A stretch of 30,719 bases of DNA, from assembly GCA_035485355.1 (NCBI GenBank), contig DATHOB010000272.1, positions 1 to 30,719 on the forward strand, in the 5' to 3' direction. Each line of letters starts with the position of its first letter. The first letter of the stretch is position 1. The notes under the pieces were generated by a model. That model searched no databases and had not been told where the DNA came from. It saw only the letters and a list, made by a program, of their open reading frames with translations. This document shows, in pieces, positions 6,817 through 20,940 of the stretch. A program made the translations under genes and the position numbers. This stretch comes from Opitutales bacterium. GTDB lineage: Bacteria > Verrucomicrobiota > Verrucomicrobiia > Opitutales > JABDGR01.

Positions 6817-7683
6817 TCACTCCGCGGCCGAGCCAGCGACCCGGATGACCAACGCGGTCGTGTTGTCGCGGCCATCCTGTTCAAGGGATGCGTCCACCAA
6901 CCGGCTCGCAACCTCGGGGCTGGGGCCCAGCGGAGTCGTGGCGCGCAAAATATCCGTCACTTGGTGGTCGTATAGCCCTTCGACCAGCCCATCCGAGCAG
7001 AGCATAAAAATATCGCCGGGTTCGTAGGCCACCGCGCCAACCTGGGGCTGCACAAACTGGTTGCTCCCGCCGAGCGCTTTTTGGAGCACGTTGCGCCGCG
7101 GGTGCATGCGTGCCTCGCGTTCATTAAGCATCCCACGGCGGAAGAGCCAGCCCACATGGGTGTCATCCTGGCTGAGCTGTTTGATTTTGTCCTCCCGCGC
7201 GGGGAGATAATAGACCCGGCTGTCGCCCACATGGGCATAATACATTTTTTCGCGCGTAAACCAGCAGAGGCTCAAAGTCGTTTCCATGCCTTTGCATTCC
7301 TCGTAGCTGGCGCCCAGTTTCACCAACGCGCGGTGGATTTCGCCGAATAGCTCCTCCAGCACATCATCCACGCCGGTGGGCAGGCCCACGGCGGAGTGGC
7401 GGTATTCGCGCGGGAGCAACGCGGTGATTTTTTCGACCGCGATGCGGCTGGCGATTTCCCCGGCCTTGGCCCCGCCCATGCCATCACACACCGCAAAGGC
7501 GAGATCGGCATGGTGCATGGAGGCCTCGCCAAATTTCCCCAAAAAATGAACTTCCTGCGCGTCGAATTGCAGACCGAGGAAGGCATCTTCGTTATTTTTG
7601 CGCACCTTGCCAAGGTCCGTCCGCCCCGACCATAAAAGATGGCAGGAGGGGGGCAGGGTAGATGCGCTCGAAGATGTTTCCAT
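6817..7683 (-). CDS. PP2C/PPM-family Ser/Thr protein phosphatase (PrpC/Stp1-like)
   Basis: Motifs RKNNEDAF, VCDGMGG, HVGDSRVY, RNVLQKALG, CSDGL, GRDNTT. Confidence 0.92.
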   Translation of the reverse strand: METSSSASTLPPSCHLLWSGRTDLGKVRKNNEDAFLGLQFDAQEVHFLGKFGEASMHHADLAFAVCDGMGGAKAGEIASRIAVEKITALLPREYRHSAVGLPTGVDDVLEELFGEIHRALVKLGASYEECKGMETTLSLCWFTREKMYYAHVGDSRVYYLPAREDKIKQLSQDDTHVGWLFRRGMLNEREARMHPRRNVLQKALGGSNQFVQPQVGAVAYEPGDIFMLCSDGLVEGLYDHQVTDILRATTPLGPSPEVASRLVDASLEQDGRDNTTALVIRVAGSAAE

Positions 7684-7692
7684 GGCGGGGGG

Positions 7693-8076
7693 CTACTCAA
7701 AGCCCGGAAGGATGGTGGCGAACTCAAAATCAATCACGCAAAATCGCCCGTCGGCTTGGCGGTAGGTGACATTGCGGATGTCGGCATCGTCGTGGCGGAC
7801 GCCGTATTTCTCCAACTCAGCAAACAAATCGCGTAGGCGGTCGGCGTCGAGATGCTCGACGCGGCTGCCGCAATTGGTGGTGACGATGCGGAGCTCCGCC
7901 GCATCGGCTTCCAGGAGGCGGGGGACAAAGGGGCAGCCCCGCGCGGCCAGGAACTTAAGCACCCGCACTTCGTTATCAAAACGTTTGGGGGCGTCCGAGC
8001 CATGGTACGCCTTGAACACCCGCCCGTCATAGGACAGGCGGACCGTGGCGCGAAGGGTGTTTTTGACCAAATCCAT
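7693..8076 (-). CDS. Minimal protein-kinase-like fold protein (127 aa)
   Basis: beta3 Lys (VFKAY), alphaC Glu (NEVRVL), catalytic loop HDDADIRN, metal-binding DFE. An in-frame upstream stop confirms the short length. Ends 10 nt before the PP2C start. Confidence 0.75.
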   Translation of the reverse strand: MDLVKNTLRATVRLSYDGRVFKAYHGSDAPKRFDNEVRVLKFLAARGCPFVPRLLEADAAELRIVTTNCGSRVEHLDADRLRDLFAELEKYGVRHDDADIRNVTYRQADGRFCVIDFEFATILPGFE

Positions 8077-8126
8077 GGAAATTTTGCGTAAAAATAATGA
8101 ACAATGTCCGCTTGTTTACCGTAGAA

Positions 8127-8142
8127 TGGCATCATATCTGCT
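8127..8142 (+). promoter_or_regulatory. sigma54 (-24/-12)-type promoter motif, upstream copy
   Basis: TGGCATCATATCTGCT, exact GG-N10-GC spacing, upstream of glutamine synthetase. Confidence 0.5.
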
Positions 8143-8163
8143 TTAAAAGTTTCTCGCGAACAA

Positions 8164-8179
8164 TGGCATTCTACTTGCT
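8164..8179 (+). promoter_or_regulatory. sigma54 (-24/-12)-type promoter motif, downstream copy
   Basis: TGGCATTCTACTTGCT matches TGGCA-N6-TTGCW; 92 nt before the GS start. Overlaps a possible sigma70 TTGCTT-N18-TATAAC (8175-8204). Confidence 0.65.
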
Positions 8180-8271
8180 TACTCTTTTAACTCCATCCTA
8201 TAACTCCGGGCGGTTTGCCTGAAAGTTAATCTGAACCAAAATAGCATACCAACATCCTACACCCTACATCC

Positions 8272-9297
8272 ATGGCCAAATACAAACTCGAATATCTCTG
8301 GCTGGACGGCTACACGCCCGTCGCCAACATCCGCGGCAAAACGCAGCTCAAGGACTACGACAGTTTTCCGAAGCTGGAGCAATTGCCCATGTGGGGCTTC
8401 GACGGAAGCTCGACCCGCCAGGCGGAAGGACACAGTTCCGACTGCATGCTAAAACCCGTGGCGGTTTATCCGGATTCTACGAAAAAGAACGGCGTCCTCG
8501 TCATGTGCGAAGTCATGATGCCCGACGGCAAAACGCCGCATCCGTCCAACGCCCGCGCGACCGTCCTCGACGATCCCGGTGCCTGGTTCGGCTTTGAGCA
8601 GGAATACTTTCTGTACCGTGACGGCGTACCCCTGGGCTTCCCCATTGGCGGTGGATTCCCGCCCCCGCAGGGCGAGTATTACACGGGCGTCGGCTACAAA
8701 AACGTCGGCGACATCGCCCGCGAAATTGTGGACACGCACCTCGACATTTGCCTCGACGCCGGCATTAACCACGAAGGCATTAATTCCGAAGTGGCCAAAG
8801 GCCAGTGGGAATTCCAAATCTTCGGCAAAGGCTCCAAAAACGCCGCCGACCAGATGTGGGTTGCCCGCTACATCCTGATGCGCCTCTGCGAAAAATACAA
8901 AGTCGACGTCAACTGGCATTGCAAGCCGCTCGGCAAAGACGTGGATTGGAACGGCTCCGGCATGCACTCGAACTTCTCGACCACGCACCTGCGCGAAGTC
9001 GGCGGCAAGCCGTATTTCGAGGCCCTCATGGCCGCGTTCGACAAATACAAGAACGAGCACATCGCCGTCTATGGCCCGGACAATCACCTGCGCCTCACCG
9101 GCCTGCACGAAACGCAGTCCATCGACAAATTCAACTACGGCATCGCCAACCGCGGCGCGTCCGTCCGTGTGCCTCATAGCTTCGTGAACGCGGGCTATAA
9201 AGGCTACCTGGAAGACCGCCGCCCGAACTCGCAAGGGGATCCGTATAAGATCGCGAGCCGCATCTTGCAGACCATCGCCACCGTCCCGACCAAATAA
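8272..9297 (+). CDS. glnA: Glutamine synthetase, type II-like (short, 341 aa)
   Basis: EYLWLDG, WGFDGSST, GFEQEY, EVAKGQWEFQ, WNGSGMHSNFS, RLTGLHET, NRGASVRVP, YLEDRRPNS. Confidence 0.95.
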   Translation: MAKYKLEYLWLDGYTPVANIRGKTQLKDYDSFPKLEQLPMWGFDGSSTRQAEGHSSDCMLKPVAVYPDSTKKNGVLVMCEVMMPDGKTPHPSNARATVLDDPGAWFGFEQEYFLYRDGVPLGFPIGGGFPPPQGEYYTGVGYKNVGDIAREIVDTHLDICLDAGINHEGINSEVAKGQWEFQIFGKGSKNAADQMWVARYILMRLCEKYKVDVNWHCKPLGKDVDWNGSGMHSNFSTTHLREVGGKPYFEALMAAFDKYKNEHIAVYGPDNHLRLTGLHETQSIDKFNYGIANRGASVRVPHSFVNAGYKGYLEDRRPNSQGDPYKIASRILQTIATVPTK

Positions 9298-9334
9298 GAC
9301 CACGGTCTTAATCGTCGGCACTGGCCATCGAGCG

Positions 9335-9381
9335 GGCCGTTCTGGGAATCATAAAAGATTCCTGGAGCGGCCTGTTTTTTT
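9335..9381 (+). terminator. Intrinsic terminator after glutamine synthetase
   Basis: GGCCGTTCTGGGAATC-ATAAAA-GATTCCTGGAGCGGCC stem followed by TGTTTTTTT. Confidence 0.8.
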
Positions 9382-9486: not shown

Positions 9487-10353
9487 TTAGCTCAACTCAG
9501 CGACTTGCGGTGTCTTTTTGAAACGGCGATAACCCGCGAGCGCAAGCACGACCAAGCCGCCGGCGAGCGCCGTGGTGGCGGGCTCGGGAATAGCGGCGAC
9601 GTTGTCCCAGTCCACCGAGTAACTGCCAGCCTGGCCGAAATTGTAGCCTTGAATCATGCCGCGGATGAGGTCGTCGCCCTGGGTGGTGGATTCGGTGTAG
9701 ACTTCCGAACCGTCGAGGTAAAAGCCGTAGAGATTGTTGCTGTAGGTTATCGCCAGGGTATGCCACGCATCAAAGGAGAAATTAGTCGGCATGACCAAGT
9801 CAACCCAGCCCAGATTATCGTCGAAAACCCGGAAGGTAAACGCGCGATCCGAAGCTGCTGCATTAAACATGTCGGTCGGGCTGGCATTGGTGAAGCCAAT
9901 GATGGGAAAATCACCGCCGTTGGGATCGGTGCCGGTCTGGCCCCAGAGATCGCTGCGGATGATTTCGCCGGTCGTAGTGTCGAATGACGAGGAGATGTAC
10001 GCCTCAGCCGAGAGCGACCAATCGCCGTTGCCGGTGATGTTGGCAAACCGCATTTCCCCCTGGGTATTGTAGAAGGCGCCGGTGAAATCGAAGCCATCGT
10101 TGGCCCCATCGGGCCGGTTGGCCGCGCTGTCGGCCTCGTCGATGGTAAGCTGCAGGCGGTTATCGCCGTCGAAAAACACGGAATTGAATCCCGCTGGAGC
10201 GTAGCGGTTGAGAACCCAGTCGGGGCTGATGGTGTCGAAAGTATCAATGATCTGGGCTGAAGCCACTCCCGAGAGTGTAATAAGGGCAAAAGCGGCGAGA
10301 ATGGAGGCCCCGAAGCGGGAACTGCGGATTTTTGAGAAAAAGGAGATTGGCAT
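9487..10353 (-). CDS. PEP-CTERM sorting-domain surface protein
   Basis: N-terminal signal peptide; C-terminal IPEPATTALAGGLVVLALAGYRRFKK (PEP, TM helix, basic tail). Confidence 0.88.
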   Translation of the reverse strand: MPISFFSKIRSSRFGASILAAFALITLSGVASAQIIDTFDTISPDWVLNRYAPAGFNSVFFDGDNRLQLTIDEADSAANRPDGANDGFDFTGAFYNTQGEMRFANITGNGDWSLSAEAYISSSFDTTTGEIIRSDLWGQTGTDPNGGDFPIIGFTNASPTDMFNAAASDRAFTFRVFDDNLGWVDLVMPTNFSFDAWHTLAITYSNNLYGFYLDGSEVYTESTTQGDDLIRGMIQGYNFGQAGSYSVDWDNVAAIPEPATTALAGGLVVLALAGYRRFKKTPQVAELS

Positions 10354-11331: not shown

Positions 11332-12672
11332 TTACGGTTGTTCGGCGGTGATGTGCTCGGCTTCCCAGGCGGTAAAATCATTATTCGGGGAGGTGGCGGA
11401 TTCAACATGGCCATCGACAAAAGCGTAAACGCGGCACCATTGGCCATCGGGCAGTTGGAAGGCGCTTTCGGTAAGCAGCACGTTGCGGTCCGGATGCTTG
11501 ATCATTGCCATGACCGAACCATCGCTAAAAGCATGAATCGCTTCCAACTTGACCACTTGATTGGGATTCAAGTTGGCCGCTGTGGTATTGGCCCAGTCCT
11601 TCATGTTTTTGGGAGAAGTGAAAGGGTTGTCCTCGCTGCCTTTATTTATTTCATCAAGCAGGGATGCAACCAATGCCTTCATCACTTCTTCATGGGGAGC
11701 GATGATAGCGGCGGCATCCATTTGAGTCGCGGCTGGCCCAGCCAACGTGGTTGATGCCGGAACTGATGCAGTGGCTGCGATTGGCTTGGTGGTAGTTGAA
11801 GCAGTGGCAGTCGTCGGCTTGGCCAATAATTCAACTGGATTTGCGGAGGGCCTGGAGGCCGCGACCACAGTGGTATTCGCCTTCGGCTTCTCTTGAGTTG
11901 CTTGGTTATCCGCCCAAGGATGAAGTTCGAGGACGGAGATCAACGCGACAAGAACAATAATGGCTAGGCCGATTTTGATTTTGGTTTGGCTCATAAAAAT
12001 TAGAAATTTAAGCAAAGCGAGGCTGCCACCGGCCGCTGCCGCGACTTGGGCCGCGGCGGAAATTTTGCCCGCCAAATAAGTCGGGGCGGGGTGAATGGCG
12101 TGTTGGGAAAGCATGGGAACCAGCACGAGGGCTGGCACGGCGACACCGTTTTTTGAAAAATATTCGCGAAGCTTTTCCAATGCGCGATGCACGCGTTTTT
12201 GCGCGGCATCGTCGGACAGGCCGAGACTCGCGCCAATATCCCGCAGGCTGCGTCCCGCGAAAAAACGTTCAACGACGAGATTCTGCTCGGCCTCATCCAG
12301 CTGGGCCATGCCTTCATCCAGCAGTGGGGCAATGTGTTCCCAGGCGGCGTGGGAATTCTGGAATATTTCGGAGAGTTGCATGGCGGCGGTTTCGTTGTGG
12401 CGACGGCGTTTTTCAGTGCGTAGGGCGTTATAGGCAGTATGGCAGGTGATACGGTACAGCCAGCCGGGGAGGGCGTTGCCGTCGCGCAGGGTGGGCGCGC
12501 GGTGGGCGAGCTGGATGAAAACGTTCTGCGCCACGTCTTCGGCCAAGGCGGGTTGGCGGGTAATGCGCACGGCCGTCGAGTAAACGAGGGGGAGGTGCCG
12601 GTTCACCAACTCGGTGAAAGCCGCCTGGGACCGATGGGTCAGGTAGCTCTCCAGTAGGGCGCGGTCGTCCAT
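11332..12672 (-). CDS. ECF sigma-70 factor with C-terminal TM helix and extracytoplasmic extension (copy 1)
   Basis: sigma2 AAFTELVNRHLPLVYSTA...AEDVAQNVF...GWLYRIT; sigma4 RSLRDIGASLGLSDDAAQKRVHRALEKLR; TM IGLAIIVLVALISVL; C-terminal YAFVDGHVE. Start placed at MDDR (12672). Confidence 0.9.
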   Translation of the reverse strand: MDDRALLESYLTHRSQAAFTELVNRHLPLVYSTAVRITRQPALAEDVAQNVFIQLAHRAPTLRDGNALPGWLYRITCHTAYNALRTEKRRRHNETAAMQLSEIFQNSHAAWEHIAPLLDEGMAQLDEAEQNLVVERFFAGRSLRDIGASLGLSDDAAQKRVHRALEKLREYFSKNGVAVPALVLVPMLSQHAIHPAPTYLAGKISAAAQVAAAAGGSLALLKFLIFMSQTKIKIGLAIIVLVALISVLELHPWADNQATQEKPKANTTVVAASRPSANPVELLAKPTTATASTTTKPIAATASVPASTTLAGPAATQMDAAAIIAPHEEVMKALVASLLDEINKGSEDNPFTSPKNMKDWANTTAANLNPNQVVKLEAIHAFSDGSVMAMIKHPDRNVLLTESAFQLPDGQWCRVYAFVDGHVESATSPNNDFTAWEAEHITAEQP

Positions 12673-12679
12673 GACAGCC

Positions 12680-12711
12680 ATTATAACTATACTGACACCG
12701 GCCAAAGACAA
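12680..12711 (-). promoter_or_regulatory. TTGTC-N21-TATAAT motif upstream of ECF copy 1
   Basis: The same bipartite motif precedes all three ECF genes in the window. Confidence 0.5.
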
Positions 12712-12899
12712 ATTCCGACGAGCCACCTGTTTATTATTCGCAACCGCGGTGCGTCCGCCTGCCAAATAAATTATCGAACTCTATTTAAAAATCATCCGAC
12801 TTTGCCCCTCAACTTCAATGGTTCTGGTGGCCTTATTCCATTCCGGTAGGGATAAACCCCATTGGAATATGCACCGCAAAGATGTAAATTAACCGCATC

Positions 12900-18263: not shown

Positions 18264-19556
18264 ATGAATCCTGATGCCGACTGTTTGCGACGCTATGCGG
18301 AAACGCAGGCCGAGGCGGCGTTTGCCGAGGTCGTGCGGCGGCACACGGATTTTGTCTATTCCGTCGCCCTGCGTGTGACGCTGAACGACGCTTTGGCGCA
18401 GGAGGTGACGCAGATGGTCTTCACCCAACTCGCGCGGCAGGCGGGTGCGCTCAGCAAATACGACACGATTGCCGGCTGGTTGCACACCACCGCGCGGCAC
18501 TGCGCCATCAACACCATCCGCGGCGAGGAACGCCGCCGCGCCCGCGAACACGAGGCCACTCTCATGCAAACCATCGCCACCACGTCGGAGGTCCATTGGG
18601 AACAGCTTCGGCCCATTTTGGACGAAGCCGTGGGGCAGCTCCGCGAGGACGACCGCAAGGCTGTGCTCCTGCGTTATTTCAACAACCTCAGCCACCAGGA
18701 AGTCGGCGCGGTGCTTGGCCTCAGTGAGGACACCGCGCGCAAACGGGTCGATCGCGCGCTGGAAAAACTGCGCGGGTATTTTGCCCAGCGCGGGGTCAAG
18801 GCCACCGCGGCGATTTTGGCGGCGGCCATCAGCACCAACTCGGTGCAGGCCGCGCCCGTGGGCTTGGCGCAAAAGGTGGTGCCCGCGTCGCTGGCAGTGG
18901 CCGGATCGGGTCATGCACTCCTTGGGGCAATTTTTATTATGAGCAACAAAACCAAAATAATCCTGGCCCTCGCGGTCTTGCTATTAATATCCACCGGGCT
19001 TTATTTCGCGTTCGCGGCCCCAAGCGAGCCCAAGAATGTTTCAATCCTAACCAACACATCACTGCAGACCAAGGCAGCCCAAGTGGTCACAACCCCCAGC
19101 TCCACCGCAGCCCCGGTGCCAGCCCCCGCGCCTATATCTCCCGCGCCGGTGACTCCGCCGGCGGTGCAAGAGGCGGCCGTGGCAACTACGGCTTCCGCGC
19201 CGTTTCAAGCAGTCGCAAATGCAGCTCCTGCCGCCCAGCTTAATGTGGACACCGCGATGACCGATTTTGCCAGCCTGTTGCAGGCAGGCGACTATGCCAA
19301 GGCGGTGGAGACTTACATGCAAATTCCGGCGACTGTTTCCGGTCAACAATTGGTGGATGGCCTGCAAAAAAATCCGGATTTTATGAAAACGGTGCAGATG
19401 TTGATCAATTCCACGCAATCGGCCCAAACCGTCACGCCGACTTATAATGACGCGGGCGACCTGGCCACCTACAACCTTAATTCGCCCACGAATGGCAAGA
19501 CCATGGTGCGGTGGAAAAAGATCAAAGGGCTGTGGTTTGTGGATGCCTTTGAATAG
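18264..19556 (+). CDS. ECF sigma-70 factor with TM helix and extracytoplasmic domain (copy 2)
   Basis: AAFAEVVRRHTDFVYSVA, GWLHTT, SHQEVGAVLGLSEDTARKRVDRALEKLR; TM IILALAVLLLISTGLYFAF; Pro/Ala linker; C-terminal domain ending WKKIKGLWFV. Confidence 0.9.
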   Translation: MNPDADCLRRYAETQAEAAFAEVVRRHTDFVYSVALRVTLNDALAQEVTQMVFTQLARQAGALSKYDTIAGWLHTTARHCAINTIRGEERRRAREHEATLMQTIATTSEVHWEQLRPILDEAVGQLREDDRKAVLLRYFNNLSHQEVGAVLGLSEDTARKRVDRALEKLRGYFAQRGVKATAAILAAAISTNSVQAAPVGLAQKVVPASLAVAGSGHALLGAIFIMSNKTKIILALAVLLLISTGLYFAFAAPSEPKNVSILTNTSLQTKAAQVVTTPSSTAAPVPAPAPISPAPVTPPAVQEAAVATTASAPFQAVANAAPAAQLNVDTAMTDFASLLQAGDYAKAVETYMQIPATVSGQQLVDGLQKNPDFMKTVQMLINSTQSAQTVTPTYNDAGDLATYNLNSPTNGKTMVRWKKIKGLWFVDAFE

Positions 19557-19635: not shown

Positions 19636-20940
19636 ATGACTCCCGACCAGGAATTGCTCCGTCAATACGCCGAGGAAGGCTCCGATGCCGCCTTTGGCGA
19701 ATTAGTGCGCCGACAGGTGAATTTTGTGCATTCCGTCGCCGTGCGGGTGGTCGCGCCGGACACCCATCTCGCCGAGGACGTCACGCAGCGGGTTTTTACC
19801 GACCTCGCGCGCAAGGCCCGCCCGCTTTCCCGCCATGCCTGCCTCGCCGGTTGGCTGCACCGCACCACACGCTACACCGCGATTTCCGCCATCCGCAGCG
19901 AGCAGCGCCGCCGCGCGCGCGAACACGAGGCCGCCACCATGCAAACACTGAACACCACCCCGGAACTGAATTGGGAACAAATGCGTCCGTTGCTGGATGC
20001 GGCGGTGGACCAGCTGGGGCCGCTCGACCGTGAAGCCGTCTTACTCCGTTTCTTTCACGGCCAAAGCCATCGCGAGATTGGCGCTGCCCTTGGCCTAAGC
20101 GAAAACTCCGCCAATAAACGCATCGAACGCGCGCTGGAAAAACTGCGTGGGTATTTTGCACGGCGGGGAGTGACGACGACCTCGGCGATTCTCGCCACGG
20201 CCATCAGCGCAAATTCCGTGCAGGCCGCGCCAGCGGGGCTGGCGGAAAAAGTGGGGCGGGCGGCATTGGTCGGTTCCGGCGTGCTGATGGTGGGAGCTGG
20301 CGGCGCATTTTTGACGGCAATTCTTTTTATGAGCACAAAAACCAAAATCATTCTCGCCGTCGCCATCATGGTGGCGTTGGTGGCCACAGTCGCGATAAGT
20401 TGGAACAACTGGCTTAAACCCGCGGTGGGGACGGGTTTTGAAGACCGCTGGGCTCCAGCACCCGAATTGCCGAAAACATCCACGATTGCCGCGCCCGCTC
20501 TTCCGCCCGCGCCTTCGGTCGCCGTTGCTACCGGAACAACATCCGCCGCGACCTCATCGGCAACCGTCAACGACCCGCAGGCAGAGTTAAGCACCGCGTT
20601 GCCGGACTTGATCACGTTGATTCAAAATGGCGATCTATTCACTGCCTATATGCGGTATATGCCGCCGTCTTACTTTGCCTCAATGCCGCAAAATGTGAAA
20701 GATCAGCTGGCCCAGCAGGAGGCCAACCTGCTGGCGGACCCGAACACGGCCCCTCGCAGGCAACAGTTGGTGCAGGCGCTGCAAGCCATGCAGACCCTGG
20801 TGCCGACCATGAACGCTGCGGGCGACACCGCCACCTATGACCTTCCCTTTCCGGCCGGCAACCCGGATGTGCAAAAAATTTCCTTCATCAAAGTTGACGG
20901 CAAATGGTATTTGTCGCCGGGGGCGAATGCGTTGTTTTAG
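19636..20940 (+). CDS. ECF sigma-70 factor with TM helix and extracytoplasmic domain (copy 3, tandem paralog of copy 2)
   Basis: AAFGELVRRQVNFVHSVA, GWLHRT, SHREIGAALGLSENSANKRIERALEKLR; TM; C-terminal domain ending FIKVDGKWYL. Confidence 0.9.
   Translation: MTPDQELLRQYAEEGSDAAFGELVRRQVNFVHSVAVRVVAPDTHLAEDVTQRVFTDLARKARPLSRHACLAGWLHRTTRYTAISAIRSEQRRRAREHEAATMQTLNTTPELNWEQMRPLLDAAVDQLGPLDREAVLLRFFHGQSHREIGAALGLSENSANKRIERALEKLRGYFARRGVTTTSAILATAISANSVQAAPAGLAEKVGRAALVGSGVLMVGAGGAFLTAILFMSTKTKIILAVAIMVALVATVAISWNNWLKPAVGTGFEDRWAPAPELPKTSTIAAPALPPAPSVAVATGTTSAATSSATVNDPQAELSTALPDLITLIQNGDLFTAYMRYMPPSYFASMPQNVKDQLAQQEANLLADPNTAPRRQQLVQALQAMQTLVPTMNAAGDTATYDLPFPAGNPDVQKISFIKVDGKWYLSPGANALF

Follow-up and report, generated by a model that had tools for sequence, protein, structure and literature searches.

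The stretch of DNA analysed here, hereafter the window, comprises positions 1 to 30,719 of contig DATHOB010000272.1 from an Opitutales bacterium (assembly GCA_035485355.1), and three of its genes form the system described below. Two of them lie on the minus strand: an open reading frame (ORF) of 127 amino acids (aa), termed here the mini-kinase (7693-8076; identified by a Pfam APH match, conserved catalytic residues and an AlphaFold2 (AF2) model), and a gene for a Ser/Thr phosphatase of the PP2C/PPM type with 288 aa (6817-7683). The third, on the plus strand, encodes a glutamine synthetase (GS) of type II (GSII, GlnII-like; 341 aa; 8272-9297; Pfam Gln-synt_N and Gln-synt_C). The mini-kinase gene ends in ...GFE-TAG and its stop codon is followed, after a spacer of 9 nucleotides (nt; 7684-7692, minus strand), by the ATG of the PP2C gene; this spacer, and the fact that relatives have the two genes fused in frame, make co-transcription and translational coupling probable. 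A divergent intergenic region of 195 nt (8077-8271) is common to the kinase-PP2C operon and glnII. A first-pass annotation of the window, made from the sequence alone, had given the coordinates of the trio and the 195-nt divergent spacer, and the ORF list agreed with both.

The mini-kinase contains the catalytic elements of a kinase in order, namely the beta3 lysine K22, the helix-C glutamate E36, H95-x-D97-x4-N102 and D116-F-E, with the catalytic loop reading HDDADIRN and the Mg loop reading DFE. Residues K22, E36, H95, D97, N102, D116, F117 and E118 were each kept in at least 90% of 39 diverse members of the family. The set K22/E36/H95/D97/N102/D116 was kept in 110/110 species-level loci from Opitutales, Verrucomicrobiales and Planctomycetota, 107 of which were identical across eleven checked sites. 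The protein ends nine residues after DFE, and neither a transmembrane (TM) segment nor a sensor domain is present in it. In all of this the first-pass annotation was borne out: it had described the retained catalytic set (beta3 K, alphaC E, HxDxxxxN, DFE), an end a few residues past DFE, which proved to be conserved at DFE+9 in homologues of 127-132 aa, and the lack of a sensor or TM domain.

A search of 5.8 billion proteins gave at least 7,988 homologue clusters among the 8,000 candidates scored, nearly all of them with 127-132 aa and 75-92% identity to the window protein, and relatives were found in at least 594 species genomes. Scanned exhaustively with HMMER, 1.84 billion representatives yielded only 283 clusters at E <= 1e-3; the family can therefore be regarded as compact, with no blending into large kinase families. 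A length under half that of any characterised kinase domain might suggest that the small ORF is what remains of a kinase gene after truncation or a frameshift, or that it arose by chance. We give this practically no credence, since more than 7,900 clusters share the 127-132-aa length and the end point, since relatives occur in no fewer than 594 species genomes, and since there is no downstream sequence for a C-lobe, the PP2C gene starting 9 nt later. The recurrent length, the invariant catalytic residues and the confident AF2 fold refute the pseudogene or chance-ORF reading, and the end point at 127 aa, conserved across thousands of homologues, can be taken not to be a truncation artefact.

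Several variants of the family were recorded alongside: a tandem duplication of the mini-kinase domain (P0261, 256 aa), a fusion with an intact kinase core and a degenerate PP2C lacking the DGMGG motif (P0143), and two proteins that had lost Mg-binding residues of the kinase core (P0217, N102Y and D116N; P0224, N102Y). Public names for the family were inconsistent, the split form being called 'Bud32' or 'serine/threonine protein phosphatase' and the fused form only 'PP2C domain-containing protein', with 'hypothetical' also in use; with public annotation wrong or empty, the family merits a model of its own.

The AF2 model of the 127-aa protein was predicted with a pLDDT of 96.8 and a pTM of 0.89, its topology comprising a kinase N-lobe and, after it, helix E, the catalytic loop, strands beta7 and beta8 and the Mg loop. 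It has no Gly-rich loop, no activation segment and no helices F to I, so that the helical part of the C-lobe in a bilobal kinase fold (helices F-I) is nonexistent here. The earlier statement that almost the whole C-lobe was lacking therefore held only for the activation segment and helices F-I, while the elements from helix E to the Mg loop are kept. Structural matches were taken from Foldseek and from an independent VIA search. The model aligned over 113-127 residues with the N-lobe and catalytic core of many kinases (Z 10-12.7), the best folds being Rio2 (Z 12.7), Rio1 (12.3), Ark1 (12.0) and Bud32 (11.0). Ark1, with a chain of 171-173 aa, was the best size-matched neighbour (23% identity, root-mean-square deviation 2.8, TM-score 0.54 on the target), and further matches were found to kinase domains of lanthipeptide synthetases, APH(2'') and NleH1 (Z 9.7; Foldseek rank 18). 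The shortest of the matched chains had about 160-173 residues (NleH1, Ark1), which makes the present core 35-45 residues shorter. As a lead only, kinase-like clusters of 142-171 aa from phages (Uroviricota) and giant viruses appeared as feature-level neighbours in the ESM Atlas.

Membership in the Hanks, Bud32, RIO and ArkI families was rejected, the defining features being absent. With regard to the Hanks type, the small ORF had no Pfam Pkinase match at E <= 1, its beta1-beta2 loop reads SYDGRV in place of a GxGxxG Gly-rich loop, and the activation segment ending in APE and helix F are absent, the chain stopping at DFE+9. The Bud32 model of NCBIfam (TIGR03724) gave 16.8 bits against a cut-off of 125, and the neighbour is PP2C, not Kae1. 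ArkI is characterised by an HGQ catalytic loop and by the C-terminal alpha6/alpha7 helices and YKR RNA-binding motif needed for tRNA, and the eraser of this RNA 2'-kinase (AQ578) is KptA (PMC9095486). The mini-kinase has an HDD loop, nothing beyond DFE+9, a near-neutral isoelectric point (pI) and PP2C as its eraser-like partner, and its structural similarity to ArkI is confined to the shared core.

The same comparisons bear on whether the mini-kinase phosphorylates RNA or a small molecule, as ArkI, APH and choline kinase do, with a purely metabolic link to GSII, for example through a substrate or inhibitor of GS. APH (PF01636) was the only Pfam family above its cut-off (32.9 bits, cut-off 23.2), and the structural neighbour that fits best in size, Ark1, is an RNA 2'-kinase. 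The Mg loop, IDFEFA, is similar to the motif of choline and ethanolamine kinases. We nevertheless consider such a role very unlikely. The APH match covers only profile positions 141-199 of 239, where the catalytic and Mg loops lie. The mini-kinase has no counterpart to the C-terminal subdomain with which APH and choline kinases bind the acceptor, nor has it the alpha6/alpha7 helices and YKR motif required by ArkI for tRNA (PMC9095486), and with a median pI of 6.2 the domain is near neutral, not basic. PP2C enzymes, moreover, act on phosphoproteins, and an obligatory pairing or fusion with one would be illogical for a kinase of small molecules.

The phosphatase itself matched PP2C_2 (PF13672, 56 bits, cut-off 24) and PF00481 (34 bits), scored 189 bits against the Stp1-type model of NCBIfam, below the equivalog cut-off of 230, and has intact metal-binding motifs (NNEDAF, CDGMGG, GDSR, CSDG, RDNTT) that are conserved. 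Its best solved relative was tPphA (2.6e-29, vs 8e-25 for PstP). In the first sample of related loci PP2C was the next gene in 28 of 29, the remaining locus being cut by a contig end, and among 109 loci the two were fused in frame in 66 and split in 43, which upholds the coupling of the small ORF to a PP2C proposed in the first-pass annotation. The fused ORF of about 400 aa was found in one Opitutaceae genus, in most Verrucomicrobiales and in all Planctomycetota seen. Since both states occur within Opitutales and within Verrucomicrobiales, fusion or fission must be taken to have happened repeatedly. Of 934 longer homologues 120 were listed, and in these no fusion partner other than PP2C recurred; a natural fusion was modelled by AF2 with a pLDDT of 91.5 and a pTM of 0.71. 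The in-frame fusions indicate that the protein constantly partnering the mini-kinase in a physical sense is PP2C rather than GS, and we regard the partnership with PP2C as obligatory.

Solo mini-kinases of about 125-134 aa were seen in Pirellulaceae (L142-L145, from genomes G618, G598, G621 and G628) and in genome G081 (L147); they are 47-56% identical, have no PP2C or GS within 4-5 kb, and occur in varying contexts (after mgtE, after mutS, near a PEP-CTERM gene). L142-L145 read HGD instead of HDD in the loop with all catalytic residues intact, whereas L147 was not in the alignment.

The domain could instead be an ATP/ADP-binding or ATPase module that regulates or targets PP2C, gating the phosphatase or docking it on GSII in the way of RIO and Bud32, with the phosphorylation itself carried out by a Hanks-type kinase. 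The closest folds (RIO1/2 and Bud32) are ATPases inside complexes, the substrate-binding elements of the C-lobe are all missing, and the mini-domain is the N-terminal domain of PP2C in 66 of 109 loci. The rare members P0217 and P0224 lost Mg ligands with PP2C intact where present, which suggests that a non-catalytic role exists too, and in G081 a GSII has a PP2C next to it but no kinase. Against this, D97 as the catalytic base and the Lys/Glu/Asn/Asp set are invariant in 110/110 loci, which a binding module would not need; P0143 combines an intact kinase core with a degenerate PP2C, and the solo mini-kinases keep intact motifs with no linked PP2C. On balance we regard this alternative as improbable, if worth keeping in view.

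The third gene product belongs to GSII by both of its domains, and its solved relatives were all GSII (4bax, 6e-86; yeast 3fky; maize 2d3a; human). Its score against the NCBIfam GlnII equivalog was 354 bits, below the cut-off of 500, and the window enzyme may on this basis be classed as a distinct GSII subtype. Of the 301 genomes examined from the window's phylum, 56 encoded the mini-kinase, in single copy, and a GSII with at least 70% identity to that of the window occurred in 56/56 of these and in 0/245 of the genomes without it. Six genomes of other classes had a GSII type of 55-61% identity, and a family-profile search of five of them found no mini-kinase. Twelve genomes of the same order without the mini-kinase (7-8 genera, 98-100% complete) were also without the GSII subtype; one of them, G126, was set aside and not counted as a joint loss, 8 kb of its sequence lying outside the search. 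For Planctomycetota a phylum-wide sample matched in 0/200 further genomes, the module being too rare there and many candidates left unscored, and a family-level sample of Pirellulaceae was used in its place. In 151 Pirellulaceae genomes the module was patchy: 19 had a GSII of at least 68% identity, all 19 with a fused kinase-PP2C, and in 59 others the only GSII type was 46-63% identical and the mini-kinase was missing.

Sixty complete trios showed three gene orders: 30 divergent, as in the window and in Opitutales; 16 with GS downstream on the same strand (about 110-160 nt; Akkermansiaceae, Luteolibacter, Rubritalea); and 14 with GS upstream on the same strand (Planctomycetota and a few Verrucomicrobiia). 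That the genes have stayed adjacent through three rearrangements speaks for selection on the linkage itself. Quick maximum likelihood trees, whose roots were not inferred, were constructed for GSII and for kinase plus PP2C. The eleven Planctomycetota sequences formed one clade in both (SH-aLRT 95 for GSII and 99 for kinase plus PP2C), nested among Opitutales-type sequences and across the split from the Verrucomicrobiales clade (86 and 100); the small group L034/L035 was placed differently between the two trees. Given the congruence of the trees, the simplest reading is that the three genes were transferred or inherited as a unit. Taken together, these genome comparisons show co-inheritance, co-loss and co-transfer of kinase-PP2C with one GSII subtype. 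A linkage to GS in relatives, the point on which the first-pass annotation had made its proposal depend, was thus recovered in 56/56 and 19/19 genomes and in all three gene orders.

Some loci depart from these arrangements. In G081 the kinase has been relocated to an unrelated place while a PP2C is still divergent from a second GSII copy; at this locus (L146, G081:C1:68000-72535) the PP2C is 49% identical to that of the window, no mini-kinase lies between the two genes, and the GS gene is cut by the contig end. In Verrucomicrobiales a second GSII-like paralogue, 55-58% identical, directly follows the linked GSII (L068:5181-6173, L072:8489-9481), and at L048:4740-5732 this divergent 55-58% type is the only GS beside the fused gene. 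A conserved fourth small gene upstream of the kinase, considered for loci in which GS is not adjacent, was rejected as the small ORFs were unrelated; a conserved stretch in L060 was likewise rejected as a fourth gene, being a methyltransferase-like gene on the other strand, and had no Rfam match.

In the intergenic region a sigma-54 type -24/-12 promoter element, TGGCATTCTACTTGCT (8164-8179, plus strand; exact match to TGGYAY-N5-TTGCW), lies 108 nt before the glnII ATG, and a second sigma-54-like element with one mismatch, TGGCATCATATCTGCT (8127-8142, plus strand), lies 37 nt upstream of it. The -24/-12 element ties glnII to nitrogen control. Under the strict pattern such an element was present in 32/73 related GSII loci, including loci in which it lies between PP2C and glnII, mostly about 100-125 nt upstream (range 77-187); the Planctomycetota GSII loci gave no strict match. 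Since the genome also encodes a type I enzyme (GSI), the GSII is an accessory one, probably induced by sigma-54/NtrC as reasoned from glnII in rhizobia.

This nitrogen context raises the possibility that the pair is a signalling module whose substrate is PII (GlnB/GlnK), an NtrC-type activator or an adaptor, through which it would control the expression of glnII or the activity of GSII. Among solved relatives the best match to the PP2C is tPphA, the cyanobacterial phosphatase of phosphorylated PII; all three PII paralogues of the genome (L119, L120, L121) have the cyanobacterial-type T-loop YRGSEY with Ser49; glnII is sigma-54 dependent; in L002, a locus without adjacent GS, an NtrC-type (sigma-54) activator lies divergent to the pair; and a divergent layout is typical of regulator and target pairs. 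The identical Ser49 T-loop, however, was found in 9/10 same-order genomes that lack the mini-kinase and the GSII, so that PII-Ser49 does not track the pair, whereas GSII does, and PII was rejected as the main substrate. In addition, the genes are co-directional with glnII in Planctomycetota and Verrucomicrobiales, neither protein has a DNA-binding domain, and the preference for tPphA amounts to only about 15 bits over other bacterial PP2Cs. We therefore see a signalling role of this kind as a minor prospect. As an observation on PII itself, the T-loop GFGRQKGHTEIYRGSEY with Ser49 as in cyanobacteria was seen in the PII proteins across this order, L119-L121 and L122-L139.

The reading that we prefer, with a confidence slightly short of even, is that the pair may be a dedicated writer and eraser which reversibly phosphorylates GSII on Ser/Thr. 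The 127-aa protein would be an ATP-dependent phosphotransferase cut down to the catalytic core of the protein-kinase-like fold and would act while physically bound to the PP2C whose gene starts 9 nt downstream. It would move the ATP gamma-phosphate onto a Ser/Thr of GSII, from which PP2C would take it off. The outcome would be a fast and reversible post-translational on/off control of the sigma-54/NtrC-induced GSII, in a role analogous to the adenylylation of GSI by GlnE or the control of isocitrate dehydrogenase by AceK. The first-pass annotation had proposed a kinase/phosphatase switch possibly tied to nitrogen assimilation, in which the substrate might complete the missing lobe; the proposal can be regarded as partly supported, the tie gaining from the GSII linkage and the sigma-54 element. 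The fold, the conservation of the active site, the partnership with PP2C and the co-inheritance are shown, whereas we infer that the protein is active as a kinase, that it acts directly on GSII and in which direction GS activity would change.

Several observations weigh against this reading. The Gly-rich loop, the activation segment and helices F-I, which bind protein substrates, are absent, and the IDFE[FY]A Mg loop and the Pfam APH match resemble small-molecule kinases. The nearest folds, RIO, Bud32 and Ark1, act mainly as ATPases or on RNA. A comparison of 61 linked with 9 unlinked GSII sequences found no convincing clade-specific Ser/Thr in the linked enzymes. T97 and S188 of the linked GSII, each 93% conserved and both in variable regions, are weak candidates only, and T237 and Y248 were rejected as clade-specific acceptors, being general GSII residues present in 4bax, yeast and maize. 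Divergent adjacency is the classical layout of a regulator and its target gene, and control could be transcriptional. GSII was not within 6 kb in about 35/80 loci of the fused-form scan, yet it was present in all six such genomes checked (G243, G005, G219, G249, G033, G305). Solo mini-kinases without a nearby PP2C or GS occur in 5/151 Pirellulaceae and in genome G081. Finally, related genomes are not independent, and the co-occurrence counts overstate the number of events.

More tentatively still, a core of about 120 residues may suffice for a fully active protein kinase that borrows its substrate-binding surface from PP2C or from the GSII decamer. This would be the first dedicated phosphorylation switch known for a bacterial GS; it would be to GSII what adenylylation by GlnE is to GSI, and would have spread between Verrucomicrobiota and Planctomycetota as a module of three genes. 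A literature search found no paper describing a mini-kinase/PP2C/GSII system. What is new is the unprecedentedly small kinase core and the metabolic partner, the pairing of kinase and PP2C being already known. We know of no post-translational control of bacterial GSII, which lacks the GlnE adenylylation loop of GSI, and the module offers a concrete candidate for such control, its putative writer and eraser being confined to genomes with one GSII subtype. Hundreds of species carry it, from Verrucomicrobiota and Planctomycetota that are abundant in soil, freshwater and the sea; Oleiharenicola lentus, Lacunisphaera and Luteolibacter sp. AS25 are cultured examples. If the proposal is true, the mini-kinase is the smallest natural catalytic core of the protein-kinase-like fold and reveals which kinase elements are dispensable when a partner protein supplies the rest.

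Downstream of glnII a strong hairpin resembling an intrinsic terminator (9331-9376, plus strand; 20 pairs, then a T run) suggests that the gene is probably monocistronic. The remaining genes of the window have unrelated functions (a peptide ABC transporter, a GDSL hydrolase, ECF-type sigma factors, a MiaB-like enzyme and a CysN-like GTPase), and the trio can hence be viewed as a self-contained unit. An Rfam search of the whole window gave no match. At 9487-10353 (minus strand) lies a secreted protein of 288 aa without a Pfam match at 1e-5, the end of which (IPEPATT...LALAGYRRFKK) was judged by eye to be a PEP-CTERM sorting signal. Three ORFs with ECF-type sigma-70 domains (11332-12765, minus strand; 18264-19556 and 19636-20940, plus strand) are each extended at the C-terminus by about 250-300 aa that include a predicted membrane segment, and look like sigma/anti-sigma-like fusions.

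With regard to known systems, the best structural neighbours of the mini-kinase are RIO1/RIO2, Bud32/PRPK and Ark1/ArkI of the AQ578 family (Z 11-12.7), which likewise have no activation loop and work within complexes; ArkI shares even the DFE Mg loop (PMC9095486). The mini-kinase differs from them in being 45-140 residues shorter and in having PP2C as its partner, not Kae1, the ribosome or tRNA, and from ArkI in its HDD loop, where ArkI has HGQ. The effectors NleH1/2 and OspG are similar in having very small kinase domains (about 160-200 aa) from which most of the C-lobe is missing and which depend on a partner, but these are secreted enterobacterial virulence proteins acting on host proteins, are 30-70 residues longer and have neither a PP2C partner nor a linkage to a metabolic gene. 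The tPphA/PphA-PII system of cyanobacteria supplies the closest solved relative of the PP2C, the nitrogen context and PII Ser49, whereas the pair described here tracks GSII and not PII.

In proposed function the pair resembles GlnE and AceK, in which two opposing activities (here on one polypeptide in the fused forms) serve a single metabolic enzyme, in the case of GlnE the other GS type, GSI. AceK has a kinase-like fold. Neither is related to the mini-kinase or the PP2C in sequence or domains: GlnE is a nucleotidyltransferase that makes Tyr-AMP, and AceK uses one active site for both reactions, where here a separate PP2C domain would be the eraser and GSII is the presumed target. In gene organisation the closest parallels are PknB/PstP, PrkC/PrpC and Stk1/Stp1, in which genes for a kinase fold and a PP2C are likewise adjacent and co-directional and follow a writer and eraser logic, the PP2C of the window being of the same bacterial Stp1/PstP/tPphA type. 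Compared with the Hanks kinases of these operons, the mini-kinase is much smaller (about 125 vs about 270 residues), has no Gly-rich loop, activation segment or helices F-I, no TM segment, no PASTA or sensor domain and no Pfam Pkinase match, is often fused N-terminally to its phosphatase, and is phyletically locked to one metabolic enzyme, GSII.

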